Below are positions 1,271 to 11,778 of a stretch of 32,000 nt of DNA, in pieces. Source of the stretch: Candidatus Odinarchaeota archaeon (GTDB taxonomy: Archaea; Asgardarchaeota; Odinarchaeia; Odinarchaeales; Odinarchaeaceae); contig JAEOUO010000003.1 in the NCBI GenBank assembly GCA_016839265.1, positions 60,001 through 92,000 of the forward strand, given 5' to 3'. A model generated the notes under the pieces. The model had not been told where the DNA came from. It worked only from the letters and a program-made list of their open reading frames with translations, and ran no database searches. Numbering within the stretch: the first letter of the stretch is position 1; each line of letters starts with the position of its first letter. The position numbers and the translations under genes are program-made.

Positions 1271-1822
1271 ATGTGCAATCCAAGACACTTCATCCATTGG
1301 AGCAGACATATAGCAACTGTTCCAAAAGGCTTCCTAAGATACCAAGTCCTGAAACTATTAGCTGAAAAACCACACTCAGGAAAAGAAATAATGGATAAAA
1401 TTCAACAACTAACAGAAGGAAAGTGGACCCCAAGCCCAGGCTCAATATACCCGCTACTAGCATTACTAGAAGACTACGGCTACATCCAACAGCTCCCAAA
1501 AGATGAAACAGGGAGAAAACCCTACCAGATCACAGAAGAAGGAAAAAAATTCCTCCAAGAACAAGAAAAACAACGAGAAGAATACAATCAAAACAGCATA
1601 GGATTATTCACACCATTCATATTCAACCACACCTGCCCGCAAATAAACCCTGAACAAGCCCTTAAAATAAAAGAAAACATAAAAAGAATATTCCAAACAC
1701 TATTCAAACTCAGAAAACACCTAACACAAAAACCAACAAACGAGAAAATCGAAAAAATAACCCAAATAATACAAAAAATAGCCGACACACTACAACAAGA
1801 AACAGAAAAACTAGAAGAATAA
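1271..1822 (+). CDS. PadR-family winged-helix transcriptional regulator
   Basis: LRYQVLKLLAEKPHSGKEIM...WTPSPGSIYPLLALLEDYGYI...RKPYQITEEG; start moved from 1235 to ATG 1271 because GAGGT lies at 1260-1264. Confidence 0.92.
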   Translation: MCNPRHFIHWSRHIATVPKGFLRYQVLKLLAEKPHSGKEIMDKIQQLTEGKWTPSPGSIYPLLALLEDYGYIQQLPKDETGRKPYQITEEGKKFLQEQEKQREEYNQNSIGLFTPFIFNHTCPQINPEQALKIKENIKRIFQTLFKLRKHLTQKPTNEKIEKITQIIQKIADTLQQETEKLEE

Positions 1823-2012
1823 ACTAAATATTCCAACTACAATCAAATCGAATAACCATGTATTCTTCCATATTCAGGTTTAATTCTAAGATAATAGAGA
1901 ACGGGGGTTCAAAATCTCGAAGCGCCTAGAATTATAATCGCTGATTTTCTCTTATTTTTACAAATAAATTTATGCACTCGAAATGTATAGAAAATTTTGA
2001 AGGGTTCTGCGC

Positions 2013-2339
2013 TTGCAAAGCATACATGGCCTTGTAGACTCATTGATAGACAGTGTAATAGGAGCGGCTACCTATATAATTGTAGATGCGCTTGAAGTAG
2101 TTTTCACTTCACTAGGTTACTCTTGGTGGCTTTTAATAATTAAGATTTTAACTTTTTTAGGGGTATTTTCTTTTATTGATAAGTTTGAGCGCTCTAATAT
2201 TTTTTATTTTACAGGATATTTTCTGGGGTTCATTATAATGAGTAGAATTTTAGGTTTAAGTATCATAGATGTGGTTGCGATAGTAGTGTTGTTTCTCTAC
2301 GTTTTTGTTAAAATTTTGGAGAAAAAAGGTAGGTGTTAA
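2013..2339 (+). CDS. Small orphan membrane protein (about 3-4 TM segments)
   Basis: 108-aa ORF with TTG start, several hydrophobic stretches and a basic C-terminus; no recognisable family. Confidence 0.55.
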   Translation: MQSIHGLVDSLIDSVIGAATYIIVDALEVVFTSLGYSWWLLIIKILTFLGVFSFIDKFERSNIFYFTGYFLGFIIMSRILGLSIIDVVAIVVLFLYVFVKILEKKGRC

Positions 2340-2357
2340 CTAGTTATAAGCTATTGT

Positions 2358-2897
2358 TTATTGAAGTTTGTTTTGAATTATAAACCAGTATGTTAATAAT
2401 TCTTTTTCTTTATTTTCATAGTCTGGGTGCCTGGTTTTTATGATTTTCCAGAATTTTTGATTATGTTTTTTTTCAATATAATGTGCGAGTTCATGATATA
2501 GAACGTATTCTATTAAGTTCGTTGGCAAATATTTCAATAACTTGTTAACTGTTAAATTATTTTTTCTACTGTAACTTGCCCATTTAGTTTTCATTTTTCG
2601 AAAGAAGATCTTATTTAAATTTACTTTAAGCTCCTGTTTGTATTTTTTAATAATATTGTTAACTAATTCTTTTAATTGCGTGTCATCTCTGCTAGATACT
2701 TCTTTTCTTTCAGCTTCTTGAACAGCTTCCTCTATTATTTTAAGTTTTCTTTGAATCCATTTTTGATGTTTTTGAATCAGCGCCTCATGGTTTTTAAAAT
2801 TTTTAGGGAGAATTAATACTAGTTTTCCTGTTTTAAATTCTAGTCTAGGATGTTTAACGTCATGGTAGTATACTGTACAGTTTTCTATTTTATCCAT
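2358..2897 (-). CDS. M48/DUF45 (YgjP-like) zinc metallopeptidase associated with type I RM
   Basis: KMKTKWASYS, EYVLYHELAH (HExxH) and HNQKFW motifs; start overlaps the hsdR stop. Confidence 0.9.
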   Translation of the reverse strand: MDKIENCTVYYHDVKHPRLEFKTGKLVLILPKNFKNHEALIQKHQKWIQRKLKIIEEAVQEAERKEVSSRDDTQLKELVNNIIKKYKQELKVNLNKIFFRKMKTKWASYSRKNNLTVNKLLKYLPTNLIEYVLYHELAHYIEKKHNQKFWKIIKTRHPDYENKEKELLTYWFIIQNKLQ

Positions 2898-5800
2898 AGT
2901 TTTTCACGTTTTCCATGATCTGTTTTTGAAGAAGTTCTATTTGATCCAAGTTAAGATTATATTTTCGAATATATTTTCGCAAGTATTCGCGAATTAAGCC
3001 TTCAATTTTTTTTCTCGCAGTAGACTGGATTTGCCAGTTTCTAAATAAGTAGGGTTTAATAATGTTAACAATCGTTTTAGCTTCTTCAACTAAATTAACT
3101 CTTTCTTTAATCGTTTTTTCAAGTGTTAAAAGAATTGAATAATCTAGATTAGGTAAATCTAATTGTTTCTGTCGGTTTTGAAGCTGGTTTATTTCTTTTA
3201 TAATTTCAACGCCTTCACTGTAGATTTTCTCATAGTCTTTGATTTTCTCTCTCCATAGTTTAAGTAAACGTTCAACTTTATCCGTTAAAGTTTCATATAC
3301 TGGGTTGCGGTATCTTTCCACGAGAATGAAACGGTTTAATGTGAATAGAATATTTGCAGCTTTCTCCTCTTTGGATTTAACTTTTTCTTGAAGGTTTCTC
3401 AAATAATCTGCGTCGAATTGAATGTCAGGATATAGGGCTTCTATATTATTGATTTTAGTGGTTGAATACACGTATTTTAATGTTTTAGGATAATATTTAC
3501 GCACATATTTCTGTTCCTCATAGTATTGCTGTCTTAACCAGTGAAGGTAGAAGGTGTAGACTTGAATCAGCCAATTATATTCCTTGAGTTTTTGAAGCTT
3601 TATTTGATGAGGGCCGAGTAATTCGAAGATTTTTCTGAGTTGACGGATATTTTTCTGGAAGAGTTTAGTTGTCTTCTCATCGGTGGTTATTATTTCGAAG
3701 GCTTTAAACATGGTTTCTCTATCTGATCTATCTAAAGGTACGCCTTGGAATAAGCTGATGGTTTCCTCTATAAGATGCGTAAATTCTTTAGCGATATCAT
3801 CTATTGGAATTAACACACCGGTGATATCTTCTTTACTATAAGTTTCTAAAGCATGTATAAATTCTTTAAGAACTCCTACATAATCGATTATGAGACCGAC
3901 TGTTTTGTGATCATTGAAAGGACGATTTGTTCTAGCTATAGCTTGAAGTAAACGATGTTCTTTAAGCGGTTTATCAAGGTACATGGTTTGAAGAATCGGA
4001 GCGTCGAATCCTGTTAAAAGCATATCTGTGACGATTAAGATTTTAGGGTAATCATCTTCTTTAAAACGTTCTATTATTTTTCTACGAATCTCTTCAGTAT
4101 CATTACTGTAGTAACGGTTTGTTAACTCTTTTAGACAGTCTTGGATTTCCTGTGGGTCTGTTCTATTATATGTCATAACAACTTCAGAGTATTCTTTAGG
4201 CAATAGTTTATCGAGCACTCGTTTATAACGGATACACGCCAGACGGCTGACAGCGACGATTAACCCTTTAAATCTTCCATCTAAGTTTTCTTTAAAATGC
4301 TCTGTTATATCATAGGCGATTTTATCTATTCGCTGCGGGTTTTCGAGAATAACTTTTATTTGATTAAGTTTACGTTTAATTTTCTCCTCTGTTTTTTCAC
4401 GGTATTCTTCAGGGATCTCCTCGTAGTCTGATTGAATAAACTCTTCAAGCATCGCTTTATCTAAGTGAACATCTTTCTCTAATCTAGGTTGGTAGGCTAT
4501 TTTTAAAGTGCAGCCGTCTTTAATAGACTCGGTTATGAAATACTTGTCAAGGTAGTGTTCACCTTCACTTGGATAAGAGAACTCTTGGTAAGTGTCTCTC
4601 CCTATTTTCATTATAGGTGTCCCTGTGAAAGCGAAGGCGAACGCGTTTTTAAGAATCTGCTTCATTTGAGCTGCTAATAAACCATACTGGGTTCGATGCG
4701 CTTCATCTATGAATAATATAATATTCTTACGGTTTTGAACGGTCTCCTGTTTTTCACTTAAACTCTCTAATTCTTTCTGTAATTCTACTAGTTCTTCAGG
4801 GCGGAATTTATGAATTAAAGTTATGAATATTCCTCGTTTACCACGGTTTTCATCAAATCTTAAGATACGCCTTAAAACCTCTATTGAGTCAACTACCTCA
4901 GGTTTAACAATATCTAAAGCCGTAAACTCCTGGTATAATTGTTCTTGAAGCTCCTCCCGATCTACTATAAAAAATATGGTAGGTTTATCGAGAACCGGAT
5001 TCAAATAAAGCTTATTAGCTGCAAAAATCATGGTTAAAGTTTTACCGCTACCCTGCCAATGCCAGATTAACCCTTTATTTTTAGTATCCTTCCCTTCTAA
5101 GTTTAAAATAACACGATTAAAGATTTTCTCAGCAGCCTGATACTGCATATACCGTGTGATTACTTTAGTTGCAACCCCGCGCTCAACGCGGAAAAATAAA
5201 TAACTTCGAATAATATTCAATAAGTTTTCAGGGGAAAGCATCTCAACAATCGCGTCCACAGGATCCTGAAAACCAGGATGCCTCCATTCATGAATTTTAA
5301 CATCGCTTCTACTCCAAGGAGTTGTTGGAAAATACTTCACCGTATACTCAGCAGCCACACCTATCTGAACATACTTATATAACTCCGGAACCATCTCCTC
5401 GTATTCACGTATCTGCTTATAAGCAGCATACCAGTCCTCCGTTAAACTAGCAGGATTCTTACACTCTATATTTACTAATGGAATACCGTTAACGTAAAGA
5501 ATTAAATCATTGCGAATCTTTTTATCACCGTTCTGGTGGACTACTTGACTTGAAACAATAAAATCATTATTACTAACGTTATCATAGTCGAAAAGCCGAA
5601 TATATTTCACAACACGCTCCTTCTCGAATTTAACAGGCACCCCCATCTTAAAATAATTGAGAACCTGTTTAACATGCTCCGCACCCGCTGTTTTAAACTT
5701 CAACTCATTTAAAACCTGCCGAACCTCCGCTTCACCTAACCCTTTTTCAGTATTCAAATTATTTAAAACACGAGTCAAAACAGAAACCAATAACGGCTCC

Positions 5801-5910
5801 TCGAAGCTCTCCCTCTCCAAGCTATCAGCTGGAATAAACCGCCAACCTTTAGCTTGAAGCCTCTGAATAAAATAATCCTCTACAACAGATTTTTCACTAA
5901 AAAGCTGCAT
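2890..5910 (-). CDS. hsdR: Type I restriction endonuclease R subunit
   Basis: NDLILYVNGIPLVNIECKNP (PD-(D/E)xK), QGSGKT Walker A, DEAHR, FTGTP, MLLTGFDAP, QAIARTNR. Confidence 0.97.
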   Translation of the reverse strand: MQLFSEKSVVEDYFIQRLQAKGWRFIPADSLERESFEEPLLVSVLTRVLNNLNTEKGLGEAEVRQVLNELKFKTAGAEHVKQVLNYFKMGVPVKFEKERVVKYIRLFDYDNVSNNDFIVSSQVVHQNGDKKIRNDLILYVNGIPLVNIECKNPASLTEDWYAAYKQIREYEEMVPELYKYVQIGVAAEYTVKYFPTTPWSRSDVKIHEWRHPGFQDPVDAIVEMLSPENLLNIIRSYLFFRVERGVATKVITRYMQYQAAEKIFNRVILNLEGKDTKNKGLIWHWQGSGKTLTMIFAANKLYLNPVLDKPTIFFIVDREELQEQLYQEFTALDIVKPEVVDSIEVLRRILRFDENRGKRGIFITLIHKFRPEELVELQKELESLSEKQETVQNRKNIILFIDEAHRTQYGLLAAQMKQILKNAFAFAFTGTPIMKIGRDTYQEFSYPSEGEHYLDKYFITESIKDGCTLKIAYQPRLEKDVHLDKAMLEEFIQSDYEEIPEEYREKTEEKIKRKLNQIKVILENPQRIDKIAYDITEHFKENLDGRFKGLIVAVSRLACIRYKRVLDKLLPKEYSEVVMTYNRTDPQEIQDCLKELTNRYYSNDTEEIRRKIIERFKEDDYPKILIVTDMLLTGFDAPILQTMYLDKPLKEHRLLQAIARTNRPFNDHKTVGLIIDYVGVLKEFIHALETYSKEDITGVLIPIDDIAKEFTHLIEETISLFQGVPLDRSDRETMFKAFEIITTDEKTTKLFQKNIRQLRKIFELLGPHQIKLQKLKEYNWLIQVYTFYLHWLRQQYYEEQKYVRKYYPKTLKYVYSTTKINNIEALYPDIQFDADYLRNLQEKVKSKEEKAANILFTLNRFILVERYRNPVYETLTDKVERLLKLWREKIKDYEKIYSEGVEIIKEINQLQNRQKQLDLPNLDYSILLTLEKTIKERVNLVEEAKTIVNIIKPYLFRNWQIQSTARKKIEGLIREYLRKYIRKYNLNLDQIELLQKQIMENVKNYG

Positions 5911-6157
5911 AATTTAAATCACACTCTTCATTTTAACACCCAATAAGTAAACGTTTTTATCATAAATTATTTTATTTTAATTATCATGAAAAATATTTAT
6001 CAGACTTAAAAGTAAGCGTTCATTCCGTTTACCTACTTTTAAAAGTGAGAAAAATGTCTTTTTAAATCTCTTCTTGCCAGATAGTTGAACATATTTACCA
6101 TCTCTAACAAATTTAATTTTGATATAATTAAGATCGTAAACAATTCTTTTTATTTGT

Positions 6158-7681
6158 TTAAATATATATTGTGAAAACATTCTTACCACTGGCAAAAGCT
6201 GCCATACTTATATCACCAGTAAGTAATATTGCGTTAAATTCTAAGCAGGTTTCAATAATTTTTTCATCTCTAACATTTTTTGGAAGAGAGTCAGGTATTT
6301 CTTCTATTTTACCTAAAGATTCAAGCTTTATTCTTCCAATCCCATTAAATTTCCATAATTTTTCAAACTCCTTTTTACCCCTCGGCGTGCCATCACATTC
6401 TTTTCTAACCACGGGATCAAGTAATATAGTAAAGTCTTCAAAAAACCTAGACGACTCAAGATCTCTACTTATTAAGTTACGTTGTATCGCATTACTATCA
6501 GGAGTCAAATAGCCGCAATAATACCTCAAAGTAAAACCAGCGTCTTCTATAAATCGCTTGCAGTTAGGGCATTTCAATTTAGTTGTACGCTTTTTTCCAT
6601 TATTAAGCGTAGCAAAGGTTACACTTTTCAAAATATGGCCACAAAGGGGGCATACAATAGAAAGAGATTGTATCGAGAGGCGGCCTTTATTAAATTCTTC
6701 GAGAAATTGGTGTGATAATAAATCTTCTTTTATTGGAGGTATTTCTTTTCTAATTTCTTGGGATTCTCCTTCCATCTTTTTTATTATTTTAAATGACTTT
6801 TTAACAAACCATGGCCATGGTTTACCTGAGTTATGCCATTGTTTAAGCCACTCTATAGTTTGTTGGTCCGCCGCGTTGCCAGATCCCACGGATAGCCCGT
6901 TCAGCTGAAACTCTGGGTTTTTATTAATCGCGTTTATAACTGCTTCTCGTTCTCTTTTAGAAACTAATGAGGCAACTTTAGCTTCAAGATATCTTTCATC
7001 TGCGTTGTTTACTATAATTACTTCTGCTTTTTGTTTTTTTAAAAAGTTTAGAAAACGTTTTAGTGTTGAGCCTATTCCAAAATCATCTAATACAATTCTG
7101 CATTGACTGATTGGTACTTTCCTAAAAAAGATGTTTAAAATTCGTTGATAAGTTACATCCATTATTTTGTTTAAATTATATCTATCTATTTGCCACGGCG
7201 GAACCTTTTCATTAATAAATGCAAATTTTTCAGTACTAAGAGAATCCAATTTCTTAAATAATGCATCCCAATATTGAAAATCATGACTTTTTTTAGTGTC
7301 TGCAGATCCAACTATTAAATGAACTTTTTCAAATATTTCTTTAGGAAAAAATACTCCAGTAAGAACCATGTGCCCTATAACTTCTCCTTTTCCAGTTTCA
7401 TCTAACCCTATCAGAAAATCTTTTGTTGGCGGTGGATATGGGATTATTAAAGAGTTTATGTACTGCCAAGCTTTAAACACTTCAAGGTCATTTGATTTAG
7501 AGGATGTACTATAAATGGTTCCGTTTTTGTAATACGTAAAAGTTGAATCTGAAAATCTTACTCGCCATTCCTCATTATTCATATCCCCAACTGTTAACTC
7601 TTGACCACCATATTTTATGAGATAATTTTTGATAATGTCCGCAGTAGGATAATCAACATTTTTCCAAGTAGAACCATGCAT
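6158..7681 (-). CDS. Multidomain nuclease: TBP-like N-domain + RNase HII/HIII domain + C4 Zn ribbon + C-terminal PIN domain
   Basis: IGLDETGKGEVIG (D94,E95), ADTKK, VLDD (D199), NADERYLEAKVASLVSK (D228), GSGNAAD; CPLC/CPNC (C344,C347,C371,C374); PIN-like PDSN (D395), VVRKE (E428), RDEKI (D472), LLTGD (D490). Confidence 0.8.
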   Translation of the reverse strand: MHGSTWKNVDYPTADIIKNYLIKYGGQELTVGDMNNEEWRVRFSDSTFTYYKNGTIYSTSSKSNDLEVFKAWQYINSLIIPYPPPTKDFLIGLDETGKGEVIGHMVLTGVFFPKEIFEKVHLIVGSADTKKSHDFQYWDALFKKLDSLSTEKFAFINEKVPPWQIDRYNLNKIMDVTYQRILNIFFRKVPISQCRIVLDDFGIGSTLKRFLNFLKKQKAEVIIVNNADERYLEAKVASLVSKREREAVINAINKNPEFQLNGLSVGSGNAADQQTIEWLKQWHNSGKPWPWFVKKSFKIIKKMEGESQEIRKEIPPIKEDLLSHQFLEEFNKGRLSIQSLSIVCPLCGHILKSVTFATLNNGKKRTTKLKCPNCKRFIEDAGFTLRYYCGYLTPDSNAIQRNLISRDLESSRFFEDFTILLDPVVRKECDGTPRGKKEFEKLWKFNGIGRIKLESLGKIEEIPDSLPKNVRDEKIIETCLEFNAILLTGDISMAAFASGKNVFTIYI

Positions 7682-7888
7682 TTAATTATCACTACCAAAA
7701 ATTCTTATATTTTCTCTATAAGTTCCAAAATATATCTCAAGCGGATAGCGTTTCCTAACTCTTCTTGAGAATAACATATACCTCAATTTTCGTAAAAGGT
7801 AGAATATGTTATTATTATAATTATCCCCCTTTATTTTATTTACCAGAAACTTGGCCAACCGGCTAATTACAAAATTTTTTAATATCAT
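7682..7888 (-). CDS. Short basic ORF, in frame with and directly upstream of the RNase H-PIN gene; coding status uncertain
   Basis: GGGAGGAAT before ATG 7888; TAA 7682-7684 directly followed by ATG 7681. Confidence 0.3.
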   Translation of the reverse strand: MILKNFVISRLAKFLVNKIKGDNYNNNIFYLLRKLRYMLFSRRVRKRYPLEIYFGTYRENIRIFGSDN

Positions 7889-7935
7889 ATTCCTCCCACT
7901 TTTTTATGTTTTTATAAAAAAATTCTATTAAATAA

Positions 7936-9201
7936 TTAATCCGCCTTAACCCTAATTTTTCCAGTAAGAAGCAAATCCATTAAACCATGTTTAATCTTTT
8001 CTAATCTCATTCTTTCATTTTTTTCGAGCTCAAGTTTTTTATCGAGGGTTGAGAGTATTTCAGCGATTCTACACTGCTCTGAAAAATGGGGTAGAGGAAC
8101 CTTGAGATTCTTTATTATTTCAGCCGTTAAATTTGCCTGCGTGGTCCGTTTTGCATACTTCTTCAAGTCTAAATAAGAAAACACGTAGTAAAAAAACTCT
8201 GTTTCTGCTTTTTCTTTCAAAATAATTCCCAAAATTGCTTGATTTGTTGTTACTTCAAGTGTATTTATTGCGACCGAACCTAAGCTTCCATATATTGCTA
8301 CTAACAATGAATTTTTTGGAACTAACCAAGCGGTAGAATTGTTTAATCCTTCCTTAGTTATGGTTGTAAGAGTGGAAGATAAATATTTTTTAGCATTAGT
8401 TATATCTTCTATTTTCACAAAAGGTATGTTACCATTATAATATTCTTTCTTGCTTGTAAGAGGCGTTCCCCCAGATTTCAATTTTTGACAAAGGTCTTGG
8501 AATCTGACAACTTCCCATTCTTTTGGTATTTTTCCAATCTCTGTATCTTTAAACTCTTTATGCCCTATTCCTTTTGTTAGGAGGTGTTGCATTAAGGCTT
8601 TCTTTAAACGCTCGGTTTTATCTATTATTTCACTGGTTTTTTGGATGGCTTGATCGATAGTTGAAAGAACTTCAGCAATTTGACACTGCTCTGTTAGTGA
8701 GGGAAGAGGAACACTTATTTTTTCAACGTCTTTTTGTTTAATATCTTGTTGTGTGCTTCCAGTAACCAATGAATCTTTTATTCTATTGAAAAAGTTGCTT
8801 AAAAAAATCTGTATTAAATATTTAGCCGCCACTTTTTCTTTACATTTTATTCCACAAAATCCAGTTGAGAAAATATATTTGTTTATGTCATCATTGTTTT
8901 CTTCTGTGAAGGCGAAAACTTTTATTGTATTCTTCATTTTTGCAAACCATACAGAATTAAGTACTGGTTGCATATTTGCTCTTGAAGGTCTTTTTGAAAA
9001 AGTTATTTCCCCTTCTGTACCGATTATTCTTATTCCATCCACACATTTTGTGGAAATATATAATTTTTTGCCATTAAACTCATTAATTCCACTTCCAATT
9101 ATTTCAAAATATTCACTATCTCCAAGTCTAACCACTACCCATTTTTTTGGTATTTTTCCAATCTCTGTGTGTTTGAAGTTTTTCTCTTTGTAGAATTTCA
9201 T
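7936..9201 (-). CDS. hsdS: Type I RM specificity subunit with two TRDs
   Basis: Twice-repeated TEIGKIPKxWxVVR and PLPxxxEQxxIAExLSTxD conserved regions flanking two variable TRDs; ATGA overlap with hsdM. Confidence 0.96.
   Translation of the reverse strand: MKFYKEKNFKHTEIGKIPKKWVVVRLGDSEYFEIIGSGINEFNGKKLYISTKCVDGIRIIGTEGEITFSKRPSRANMQPVLNSVWFAKMKNTIKVFAFTEENNDDINKYIFSTGFCGIKCKEKVAAKYLIQIFLSNFFNRIKDSLVTGSTQQDIKQKDVEKISVPLPSLTEQCQIAEVLSTIDQAIQKTSEIIDKTERLKKALMQHLLTKGIGHKEFKDTEIGKIPKEWEVVRFQDLCQKLKSGGTPLTSKKEYYNGNIPFVKIEDITNAKKYLSSTLTTITKEGLNNSTAWLVPKNSLLVAIYGSLGSVAINTLEVTTNQAILGIILKEKAETEFFYYVFSYLDLKKYAKRTTQANLTAEIIKNLKVPLPHFSEQCRIAEILSTLDKKLELEKNERMRLEKIKHGLMDLLLTGKIRVKAD
8514..9168 (+). repeat. 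31-bp direct repeat (1 mismatch) inside hsdS at 8514-8544 and 9138-9168
   Basis: CCCATT(C/T)TTTTGGTATTTTTCCAATCTCTGT occurs twice, encoding the TEIGKIPK(E/K)W conserved block. Confidence 0.9.
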
Positions 9202-10955
9202 GGTATGTCTCCTTGGGCTTTTATTATTTCATGTAGGTATTGTTCTAGTTTTTCGTTTAATGCTTGTTTTTCTTTTTCCAGTTGTTTAAGCGCCTGGAAC
9301 TCTGCGGCGATATTTATTTGCTCTGTTTCCTCTTCAGGCATGATGTATAATGTTATGTTAAGGTTGTAATCGTTTTGCTTAATTTCGTTTAAACTAATAA
9401 TTTTAGAGAAGTTTTTTTCTTCACTGAAATTCTTGTATGCGCCCGCTATTTTCTTAATGTTGTTGGGGCTGAGAGTGTTTAGTTTTCGAACCTCCGGGTT
9501 TTGCTCGAATTCTTTAGAGGCGTTGATGAATAGTATTTTATTTCTGCGTTCCAGTGGCTTATTTTTTCTAAAGATGAGTATAGCTCCAGGTGCGCCGGTG
9601 TTGTAGAATAGTTTTTCAGGTAGTAGTATAACGGATTCGATTAAATCTTCTTCTAGGATTGCGGTGCGAATAGATTTTTCTCTTCCACCTCGGAAAAGGC
9701 AGCCATTATCTAAGACTACTCCTATTCTACCAGTTTCTTCTTTAGCTGAGGCGATCATGTGTTGAATCCAAGCCCAGTCCGCGGATTGTCTCGGAGTGAA
9801 ACCATAGGTGTAGCGTTGCTTCCAGAACTCTGCTTTTTTTAATGTGTCTTCTCCGTAGCCGTCTTGATTCCAGGGAGGATTGGCTACAACTATATCGAAT
9901 TGTTGGAGAGTGTCTTTTTCCTTGAATTTAGGATATAGGAGTGTATCACCGTATTCTAGATGTGAGTCTCGTATGTCATGGATAAACATGTTCATTTTAG
10001 CTAGGGCGAGAATGGATTGATTTGATTCTTGACCATATAAGAAGAGTTTGCTAGCTTCTTCGCCGCCGTGTTTTTCTTCGACGTGTTTATAAGCGGTGAT
10101 AAGCATGCCGCCTGAGCCGCAGGCGGGGTCGTAGACGGTTTCTAAAGGTTTAGGGTCAAGGATTTCGATTAACAGTTTTATGACTTCTCGAGGAGTGTAG
10201 ATTTCTCCTTCTTTCGCTTTTGCAGGGGCGAAATAGCGTAGAATCCATTCATAGGCGTCGCCTAGAATATCAGCTGAAACATGGTTGAGTTTTTTCTCGC
10301 TGAATAATTCTACTAGTTGGCGTAGTATTTCCGTGTTTTCACGGCTGCTTGTGAACTGGATGAAGTCCACGCTGTCGAATATGATTTTAAGATCAGGGTT
10401 AAGGTCTGCTATAGTTTTTAAAGCTTTTGAAAGTCGTTCTGTTAATCCAGCTACGTCTCTGCGTATGTTCTCCCAATGGTATTCTTCAGGTAGATTAAAC
10501 CAGTGGAATTCGCTGCGCGCAGCTTCTTTACGCGCCTGTTCCTCGGTTAAACCGTCGGCTAAAGCTTTCCGATATGCTTCTTCGAATTCTACATCCCATT
10601 TATCGCTTATTCTTTTCAGAAATAATAATATTAGTATGAATTTATAGTCGACGCGGGTGCGGATTAGATCCGCGGCTTTTTTAAGCAGACTGTCGATTTC
10701 ACCTCTTCCAATATGTTGTTCAACGTTTTTAAGACGGTAGATTTTCTCGCGTGCATCGCGGCGATCTGCTTCAACGGTTAGTAATCCTTCTTTTCTTAGC
10801 TCAGATAGAAACGCGGGGATTTGCTCCCATTGATCTTTATTTTTATTCATTAAGACGCGGGCGGCGTCTGAGAAGCGGAAAGGGTTTTCATCGAATTCAC
10901 TGAATAGAATTTTATACCGGTTCATAATCCAGTTAGGTATATTAGAAGAATTCAT
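9198..10955 (-). CDS. hsdM: Type I RM N6-adenine methyltransferase with N-terminal winged-helix-like extension
   Basis: ILGDAYEWILRYFA, GEIYTPREV, YDPACGSGG (motif I), ANPPW (motif IV); about 80 extra N-terminal residues before the HsdM N-domain. Confidence 0.96.
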   Translation of the reverse strand: MNSSNIPNWIMNRYKILFSEFDENPFRFSDAARVLMNKNKDQWEQIPAFLSELRKEGLLTVEADRRDAREKIYRLKNVEQHIGRGEIDSLLKKAADLIRTRVDYKFILILLFLKRISDKWDVEFEEAYRKALADGLTEEQARKEAARSEFHWFNLPEEYHWENIRRDVAGLTERLSKALKTIADLNPDLKIIFDSVDFIQFTSSRENTEILRQLVELFSEKKLNHVSADILGDAYEWILRYFAPAKAKEGEIYTPREVIKLLIEILDPKPLETVYDPACGSGGMLITAYKHVEEKHGGEEASKLFLYGQESNQSILALAKMNMFIHDIRDSHLEYGDTLLYPKFKEKDTLQQFDIVVANPPWNQDGYGEDTLKKAEFWKQRYTYGFTPRQSADWAWIQHMIASAKEETGRIGVVLDNGCLFRGGREKSIRTAILEEDLIESVILLPEKLFYNTGAPGAILIFRKNKPLERRNKILFINASKEFEQNPEVRKLNTLSPNNIKKIAGAYKNFSEEKNFSKIISLNEIKQNDYNLNITLYIMPEEETEQINIAAEFQALKQLEKEKQALNEKLEQYLHEIIKAQGDIP

Positions 10956-11015
10956 AAATAACGATGTGAAAAAATAAACATATAAATCTATTCTTATTAC
11001 CTAAGCTGAATTATT

Positions 11016-11339
11016 TTAGCTTAGGTTTTCTTCTTCTCTTGGTTTTATTGTTATTGTTTTTCCTGTTGTTAGGGCTTCAGCGATTTTTTTATGTGCTTGT
11101 TCTAGGAGTCTCCAGATCGTGCCGCGGCTTATGTTCATTTTCAAGCCGGCTTCTTCTTGTGATAGGCCTTGGAGGTCTACTAGTTTTAGCGCTTCCAGTT
11201 CATCGTAGTATAGGGTTATTTCAGGTGTGAGTGGGGGGGTGGTGGTGCAGATGAATTTTTTCGGTTGGTGTTCTGCGTCTAGGCAGCGTGGTTTGCGGGG
11301 TCTTCCGCGGCATCGGGGTCCTCTCCAACGATAGCACAT
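11016..11339 (-). CDS. DUF134 (UPF0251) HTH DNA-binding protein
   Basis: RGRPRKPR...ITLYYDELEALKLVDLQGLSQEEAGLKMNISRGTIWRLLEQAHKKIAEAL signature. Confidence 0.92.
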   Translation of the reverse strand: MCYRWRGPRCRGRPRKPRCLDAEHQPKKFICTTTPPLTPEITLYYDELEALKLVDLQGLSQEEAGLKMNISRGTIWRLLEQAHKKIAEALTTGKTITIKPREEENLS

Positions 11340-11409
11340 TTTGTAAGCCTCGGTTGTGTTTATTTTAAATAATATGTGTTTAGGGAATATTAAGGCTTAG
11401 TTTAGCTGT

Positions 11410-11778
11410 TTAATGGCTGTGGCGTGAGTGATGGCACGGCTGGAGGCTGGTTTTCAATAAGCCTTTCAGATAGTTTTCTACGTTTTCTTTTAGTATCGGA
11501 CTTGTAGCTGAGAGAACTTTAATGTTATTTGCGGATAGGATTTGTATGGCTTTAGGTCCCATGCCGTATGTGATCACCGCGTCGGGTTTATATTGTAGTA
11601 TGTTCTCGGATGGTAATCCGTATCCGCCGAAGTGTTGGCTGGTGTTAGGTTTAACTTCGACAGTGTATTGGTTGTCTTCCTTAATGCTTACTACCGCCAT
11701 ATAAGGGGCTCTTCCGAAGTGCTCGCTTAAACGCGAGTTTTCACCTTTATCTTCTTCAACAGGTACTATTATTATCAT
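11410..11778 (-). CDS. NifB/NifX-family (MTH1175-like) protein with His-rich tail
   Basis: LSEHFGRAPYMAVV, DAVITYGMGPKA, C-terminal CHHSRHSH. Confidence 0.9.
   Translation of the reverse strand: MIIIVPVEEDKGENSRLSEHFGRAPYMAVVSIKEDNQYTVEVKPNTSQHFGGYGLPSENILQYKPDAVITYGMGPKAIQILSANNIKVLSATSPILKENVENYLKGLLKTSLQPCHHSRHSH

Follow-up and report, generated by a model that had tools for sequence, protein, structure and literature searches.

The window analysed here is a 32,000-nucleotide stretch of contig JAEOUO010000003.1 of Candidatus Odinarchaeota archaeon, whose genome (G000 in our comparisons, in which L-numbers denote compared loci and G-numbers compared genomes) has 1.35 Mb and a GC content of 36.3%; the presence of RpoN identifies the host as an archaeon. 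Unless a compared locus or genome is named, positions are those of the whole window. We focused on a type I restriction-modification (RM) operon and, in particular, on a gene in its middle encoding a 507-residue protein, referred to below as X (P0001), in which an RNase H3-like part is followed by a zinc ribbon and a PIN domain. All genes of the operon lie on the minus strand, in the order hsdM, hsdS, X, hsdR and a peptidase gene, which is the co-oriented arrangement read here by the original prediction, a note made from the sequence alone. The first gene, hsdM (9198-10955), encodes a methylase subunit of 585 residues (PF02384, E value 1.5e-113; PF12161; MTase_I in PADLOC), and hsdS (7936-9201) a specificity subunit of 421 residues with two target-recognition domains (TRDs), each seen as a separate stretch of similarity to PF01420 (E value 2e-47; Specificity_I in PADLOC). 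X itself (6158-7681), assigned from profiles, an AF2 model and Foldseek, is followed by hsdR (2890-5910), which encodes 1006 residues (TIGR00348, E value 2e-204; PF04313, PF18766 and PF22679), and by a gene for a YgjP-like (DUF45) HExxH metallopeptidase of 179 residues (2358-2897; PF01863, E value 1.8e-29; motif HELAH). The hsdM and hsdS genes overlap by 4 nucleotides (9198-9201), and hsdR and the peptidase gene by 8 nucleotides (2890-2897). With complete HsdM, HsdS with two TRDs and HsdR encoded in one operon, the system is therefore of type I. Metagenome contigs over this stretch came from four runs of three studies of oil-field or hydrocarbon samples, and the public runs listed as containing it are all DNA metagenomes, with no RNA run among them; a single contig runs unbroken from the left flank through the peptidase gene, hsdR and X into hsdS, and the hsdS-X junction is also spanned in a run from a second study. 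Because both the hsdS-X and the X-hsdR junctions are spanned by contigs of several runs, this gene order does not result from chimeric assembly.

Domain architecture of X

The defining feature of X is the order of its domains, all encoded on the minus strand. Residues 1-85 (7427-7681) form a TBP-like N-domain as in RNase H3, with the alignment to TIGR00716 starting at residue 14, and residues 89-300 (6782-7417) a type 2 RNase H core (PF01351, E value 4.5e-18 over residues 91-298). These are followed by a C4 zinc ribbon (residues 340-378; 6548-6664), recognised from the conservation of its cysteines, and a PIN domain (residues 388-507; 6161-6520). No Pfam model, those for PIN included, matches the C-terminal domain of P0001; it was identified by Foldseek and by a profile of 42 family members, which matches the MJ1533 PIN (PDB 3i8o) with an E value of 3.3e-6 and also AF0591 (1o4w). 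An AF2 model of X built from the 42-member alignment (predicted local distance difference test score 93.5, predicted template modelling score 0.88) suggests, by the high value of the latter score, that the domains are packed in a defined arrangement. The best Foldseek match of this model is RNase H3 from Thermovibrio ammonificans (4py5), followed by archaeal RNase HII structures; since the first match covers 302 columns and the RNase H core has only about 210 residues, it presumably reaches into the N-domain. The tail of the model matches 3i8o, the PIN of the PINA helicase (5f4h), TTHA0540 (3ix7) and the PIN of SMG6, each with a probability of 1.0.

Conservation of the catalytic residues extends to both nuclease domains. 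In 22 sequences that are 58-71% identical, D94, E95 and D199 of the RNase H core and the acidic residues D395, E428, E473 and D490 of the PIN domain are invariant, and the zinc-ribbon cysteines C344, C347, C371 and C374 are invariant in 42 sequences. The fourth RNase H carboxylate, D228 in X, is not invariant, the family having D or E at 228/229. The motif D94-E95-T-G97-K98-G99-E100 of X corresponds to the RNase H3 signature D78-E79-x-G81-K82-G83-E84, of which the Glu reads two 2'-OH groups, whereas in RNase H2 a tyrosine gives specificity for the RNA-DNA junction (Figiel and Nowotny, PMC4132731). In X the position of that tyrosine, the Y of GSGY in archaeal RNase HII, is taken by an invariant asparagine, N269. 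From the signature and from N269 in place of the junction tyrosine, the catalytic core of X appears to be RNase H3-like and should favour RNA runs in RNA/DNA hybrids. X falls below the cut-offs of both established families: it scores 49.2 bits against the rnhC equivalog model (TIGR00716; cut-off 161.2) and 86.7 bits against the archaeal RNase HII model TIGR00729 (cut-off 123.3), and it has GKG instead of GRG.

The nearest known relative in architecture is thus RNase H3 (RnhC; 4py5, 3vn5 from Aquifex and 2d0a from Geobacillus), which shares with X the TBP-like N-domain ahead of a type 2 RNase H core and the DE-x-GKGE motif with its 2'-OH-reading Glu, lacks the RNase H2 junction tyrosine, and gives the best structural match. 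X differs from it by about 200 extra residues, the zinc ribbon and PIN, and by being patchily distributed, horizontally transferred and found within defence operons, whereas RnhC is a stand-alone housekeeping enzyme of about 250-310 residues. The PIN domains of MJ1533, PINA, TTHA0540 and SMG6 resemble that of X in fold and acidic tetrad, and Nob1 combines a PIN with a zinc ribbon. However, in proteins of the MJ1533, PINA, TTHA0540, SMG6 and Nob1 types the PIN is paired with KH, ATPase or ribosome-biogenesis modules, in none of them with RNase H. The literature that we searched holds no description of an RNase H-zinc ribbon-PIN fusion, and no fused or longer forms of X (>888 residues) were found, which is weak evidence.

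Shorter relatives of X also exist. Proteins of about 300 residues (L030-L032 and others) match only residues 1-304 of X, at about 40% identity, and consist of the N-domain and RNase H core with neither zinc ribbon nor PIN; they have a conserved neighbourhood in WOR-3 and Acidobacteriota. These forms may be housekeeping RNase H3-like relatives and the source of X. Their apparently housekeeping contexts bear on one explanation of X itself, namely that it is an extra RNase H paralogue for removal of primers or R-loops that is in the operon by chance, and the pairing of an RNase H with a flap-type nuclease would fit the logic of Okazaki primer removal. We regard this as the least probable of the explanations considered here, and as highly improbable. 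The host genome already encodes a separate, canonical RNase HII elsewhere, the PIN of X is of the MJ1533/PINA/SMG6 type rather than of the FEN type, and X recurs inside RM operons. Furthermore, only 3 of the 61 relatives searched, its own genome included, have a match to X, and the other three genomes of the genus are not among them.

Insertion of X into a strain-specific island

Comparison with related operons shows that X is an insertion. The closest relatives of the RM genes (HsdR 70%, HsdM 73% and YgjP 56-58% identical) lie in operons arranged as hsdM-hsdS-hsdR-YgjP. In two of these operons (L079 and L081) hsdS and hsdR are separated by 2-8 nucleotides, without X, and in a third an unrelated, unannotated gene of 273 codons occupies the slot (L080:1493-2314). 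The closest homologues of X, 68-69% identical, are found instead in type I operons with a more distant HsdR, no more than 49-60% identical (L082 and L083), where they separate hsdM from hsdS, and the hsdS-hsdR slot of these X-bearing operons holds MNT-HepT in one case and DUF1186/SEC-C with PRiA4 in the other. Because the closest RM relatives lack X and the closest X proteins occupy another slot of more distant operons, X and its host operon differ in history. X is an independently mobile single-gene cassette, inserted here at the hsdS-hsdR junction, and in this type I subfamily the slots between the hsd genes serve as insertion points for accessory cassettes; the view that the slot holds a foreign accessory nuclease, already part of the original prediction, is thereby upheld. 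In the two operons with the closest X homologues (L082:4952-7092; L083:4381-6966 and 9717-10347), the cargo comprises a 212-residue DUF1186/SEC-C protein with PRiA4_ORF3, a 500-residue protein with a weak PIN_3 match and an MNT-HepT pair.

Base composition proved to be a poor guide to this history. The insert (5911-7935) is indeed richer in AT than hsdM (30.9% and 40.8% GC, respectively), as had been claimed, and this had been taken as consistent with separate acquisition. We rejected composition as a mark of acquisition since the GC content of the insert is not distinctive relative to hsdS (32.0%), the YgjP-like gene (26.7%), hsdR (35.5%) or the genome (36.3 ± 3.1 per 1.5 kb). X has 33.1% GC, and the outlier is hsdM. 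When the ends of the 2-kb insert were searched for repeats, direct or inverted, only short AT-rich matches at chance level were returned, and the insert has no recombinase of its own.

X is flanked by two AT-rich spacers (7682-7935, minus strand, 25% GC; 5911-6157, minus strand, 23% GC), which are nearly filled by two small open reading frames (ORFs) on the same strand, seen in the six-frame ORF listing. The upstream one, sORF68 (7682-7888, minus strand, 68 codons), has a GGGAGGA ribosome-binding site and a stop codon that abuts the ATG of X, and it is longer than the corresponding ORF in 1982 of 2000 shuffles; sORF72 (5977-6195, minus strand, 72 codons), which overlaps the 3' end of X, is likewise longer than in >99% of shuffles. 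The predicted products have an isoelectric point of 10.6. Neither has a homologue at other X loci or elsewhere in the genome, which places both outside the conserved module. The small ORFs flanking X at other loci resemble neither one another nor sORF68 or sORF72, so X has no conserved small partner.

The whole operon lies in a 9.2-kb segment (1825-11015) bounded on the left by a PadR-family gene (1235-1822) and on the right by a DUF134 gene (11016-11339), as comparison with genomes of the same genus shows. In one of these (G002:C119; L078) the flanks, which correspond to the window up to 1824 and from 11032, are only about 300 bp apart and form an empty site. In another (G001:C1:1223800-1235600; L077) about 10 kb lie at the same site, comprising a type III Mod/Res pair, a 507-residue PD-(D/E)XK-like protein and a nucleotidyltransferase. 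Searches of the other three genomes of the genus recovered neither X nor the RM system. Given the empty site in G002 and the different RM system in G001, the segment is an island specific to this strain, and it occupies a defence hotspot: the PadR/DUF134 site is variable in its defence content within the genus. As a whole, the locus is a complete type I RM island that was acquired horizontally, with hsdM, hsdS, hsdR and the YgjP-like peptidase gene as its core.

That the peptidase belongs to this core rather than forming an additional layer of defence follows from the related operons, in which the YgjP-like gene overlaps the 3' end of hsdR in five of five cases (L079-L083). The peptidase accompanies this HsdR subfamily as a core partner and is not peculiar to the locus. 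The original prediction had called it an M48 peptidase; the metallopeptidase assignment holds, with its HELAH motif, whereas the family is YgjP/DUF45 and not M48 proper, although NCBI/PGAP labels it "M48 family metallopeptidase". A literature search for a link between YgjP and type I systems returned nothing useful. A second YgjP-like paralogue with 28% identity is encoded at G000:C2:100387-100992.

Several further features of the operon and its surroundings were recorded. In the first TRD of hsdS (8514-9167), contigs of all four metagenome runs break at about 8543-8554 and 9114-9167, and the summed depth over 8514-9181 is higher in two of the runs, which suggests alternative TRD1 alleles or hsdS strain variants in the population. 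HsdM has an N-terminal extension (residues 1-85; 10700-10955) ahead of the HsdM_N domain, with a weak match to an MsvR-like helix-turn-helix (E value 0.001), and relatives are equally long (586-589 residues). A weak HsdM-like methylase match was also seen on host contig C4. Within the island, a hydrophobic ORF of 108 codons (2013-2339, plus strand), found in the ORF listing, is convergent with the operon and belongs to no family. An Rfam scan of 1500-11500 gave no match, no tRNA genes were found in the window, and the window outside the island carries housekeeping genes.

Distribution and genomic contexts of the X family

The X family is large and widely spread. A word-indexed search returned >500 members at E values <0.001, the best 120 of which are 58-71% identical to X and come from Thermotogota, Latescibacterota, Chloroflexota, Thermococci, Thermoplasmata, Asgard archaea and others. 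An exhaustive search gave 86 clusters (50% identity) at E values <1e-30 and also recovered the forms of about 300 residues. A distant relative of 534 residues (P0267) combines an RnlA_toxin-type N-domain (PF15935, E value 3e-5) with an RNase HII core and links the X family to RNase LS-type proteins. No copy of X turned up among the IMG/VR contigs, PLSDB plasmids and GenBank phages searched, which is weak evidence, given the uncultured hosts, for a cellular rather than a viral gene.

We surveyed the neighbourhoods of X at 47 species-representative loci and 8 metagenome loci, among which there is no one neighbour that all share. Nevertheless, methylation-based systems recur in the contexts, which were drawn from about 33 distinct full-length loci. 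X occurs in type I RM operons (the window, L002, L020, L082 and L083) and beside a decayed type I remnant (L017), with an HSDR_N_2-methylase and a specificity gene (L001, and L050 beside Tn7-like genes), with a methylase and Mrr_N (L004), in DUF1156 methylase/DUF499/SNF2 systems (L006, L007, L009 and L058) and with an N6_N4 methylase (L027). Other contexts are type III CRISPR-Cas (L003 and L057), Cas3-Cas4 (L002), GmrSD (L022), ImmA-DUF4411 (L013 and L016) and an islet of HEPN and HicAB genes (L054), and at L052, L019, L012 and L023 X is alone among ordinary genes. Directly downstream of methylase or specificity genes X recurs in four system types, and where the upstream gene overlaps or abuts X, it is a methylase or specificity gene at 11 of 12 such loci. 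These contexts support an association of the X family with defence. Proximity of homologues to hsd and other defence genes was a check named beforehand, and the association at the surveyed loci is strong. In a maximum-likelihood tree of 31 X proteins, members embedded in type I operons are scattered, with starred branches that force at least four changes, and the DUF1156-linked members form one clade from Archaeoglobaceae.

These contexts bear directly on the idea, raised in the original prediction, that X is a guard of the PrrC type, held latent on the HsdM/S/R complex and firing as an abortive-infection nuclease once an anti-restriction protein disables that complex. In EcoprrI the gene for PrrC is embedded between the hsd genes of a type I RM operon (PMC12707154), and X, like PrrC and RloC, is encoded in that same slot. 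Its toxin-like PIN head and its position, nearly always directly after methylase or specificity genes and translationally coupled to them, are in keeping with such a guard. However, PrrC is an enzyme that cleaves tRNA-Lys and carries an ABC-ATPase-like sensor domain, whereas X shows no homology to it and has no sensor domain, and no PrrC- or RloC-like ATPase or anticodon-nuclease domain was found in X with Pfam, NCBIfam or PADLOC. Unlike PrrC, X extends beyond type I loci and also occurs as a solitary gene, and it stays about 60% identical across four unrelated types of methylase system as well as CRISPR, GmrSD and housekeeping contexts. Its tree is decoupled from the phylogeny of HsdR and HsdM, and it has survived beside the decayed hsd remnant in L017. 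X is therefore probably not a guard that senses this particular RM complex, and we consider the guard explanation quite unlikely.

The same coupling to recognition modules could reflect assistance rather than surveillance, with X clearing R-loops and hybrids or processing hybrid intermediates for HsdR, for the SNF2 helicase of the DUF1156 system, for Cas3 or for Cas10 complexes. Every host system has a DNA translocase or helicase or acts at R-loops, X is presumably expressed together with the recognition module, and RNA runs in hybrids are the preferred substrate of an RNase H3-type core (PMC4132731). Such a helper would nevertheless be hard to reconcile with solitary X genes in housekeeping neighbourhoods and with the nearest RM relatives, which lack X, and it leaves the PIN head unexplained. 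We judge this role unlikely.

Mobility invites another interpretation. At L050 (4727-15481) a methylase-S-X cassette with an unknown gene of 399 codons adjoins the TniQ, TniB and transposase genes of a Tn7-like element, which suggests that the cassette is carried by a transposon. X could accordingly be a selfish or addiction element, a toxin-like nuclease whose gene spreads by settling in RM islands that are already mobile and keeps them stable, while giving no protection against invaders. Besides its proximity to these Tn7-like genes and to serine recombinases (L015 and L022), the PIN head and the patchy distribution across domains at about 60% identity would be expected of such an element, and sORF68 abuts X in the fashion of an antitoxin gene. 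Yet no antitoxin or partner ORF is conserved across loci, X brings neither terminal repeats nor a recombinase, and both active sites and the entire 507-residue architecture are strongly conserved. This explanation seems to us very unlikely.

A proposed role for X

The interpretation that we favour, with slightly better than even confidence, is that the locus is a type I island with an inserted two-headed nuclease, X, that acts as an autonomous accessory module and provides an RM-independent second line against invading replicons. The TBP-like N-domain and the RNase H3-type core would clamp an RNA/DNA hybrid and cut its RNA strand, and the rigidly attached zinc ribbon and PIN would make a second cut, probably directed at RNA. 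X would be co-expressed with the upstream methylase or specificity genes of methylation-based defence systems, and its targets would be replication primers, R-loops or nascent transcripts in RNA/DNA hybrids of invaders. These substrates, the role against invaders and the autonomy from HsdMSR are what we infer, whereas the genes present, the domain order of X, the conservation of its catalytic residues, the island, the insertion by comparison with operons that lack X and the bias of the contexts towards defence are shown by the data.

Two precedents lead us to rank an autonomous, hybrid-targeting effector highest. In the anti-phage RNases RnlA and LsoA (RNase LS), RNase H3-like TBP domains bind the substrate (PMC8266594), and Anantharaman et al. 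(2013) described "two-headed RNases" in which HEPN RNases are joined to RNase H modules, predicted to act against RNA in RNA-DNA duplexes (PMC3710099). X shares with both the combination of a hybrid-binding module and a second RNase head. It differs in that its second head is a PIN and not a HEPN domain, and, relative to RnlA and LsoA, in having no conserved antitoxin of the RnlB or Dmd type and a homology limited to the TBP-like fold.

Several points weigh against an autonomous weapon directed at invaders. About a third of the loci have no recognisable defence neighbour (L052, L019, L012 and L023), and the defence bias of the contexts is descriptive, not statistical. The PADLOC check named with the original prediction matched the methylase and specificity subunits, MTase_I and Specificity_I, whereas none of the families of PADLOC-DB 2.0 matches X. 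Neither a sensor domain nor a conserved partner of X is visible, and the proposed role gives no explanation of how a constitutively co-expressed PIN/RNase H protein would avoid harming its own cell. The tight coupling to methylase and specificity genes could alternatively denote a functional link to the modification module. The case for a role against invaders is built from sequence, model and genomic context.

A link of that kind is part of a bolder reading, in which X is the effector of an undescribed and widely transferred layer of immunity that reads RNA/DNA hybrids, such as primers and R-loops, as the mark of an invader's replication or transcription, destroys their RNA by two coupled active sites and is functionally tied to the methylase/specificity module, for example through recruitment to, or licensing on, target DNA that lacks the modification. 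We put this forward tentatively, as a possibility that is more doubtful than not.

X is a good candidate for an accessory weapon against viruses or plasmids. Accessory nucleases nested in RM operons are already known as a kind, to which X adds a variant, and such nested genes, including PrrC, RloC, HEPN and toxin-antitoxin cassettes, have repeatedly proved to be second-line immune effectors. What sets X apart is an architecture new to PADLOC and to the literature searched, maintained at about 60% identity in phyla of both bacteria and archaea. The locus also offers an unusually clean natural experiment—a sister genome in which the site is empty, sister operons that are 70% identical and lack X, and others that carry X in a different slot—and X can for this reason be easily tested with and without its host system. 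If the proposed role is true, X would be the first enzyme based on a type 2/3 RNase H to be linked to defence, and its targeting of RNA/DNA hybrids would make replication primers or R-loops a target of immunity.

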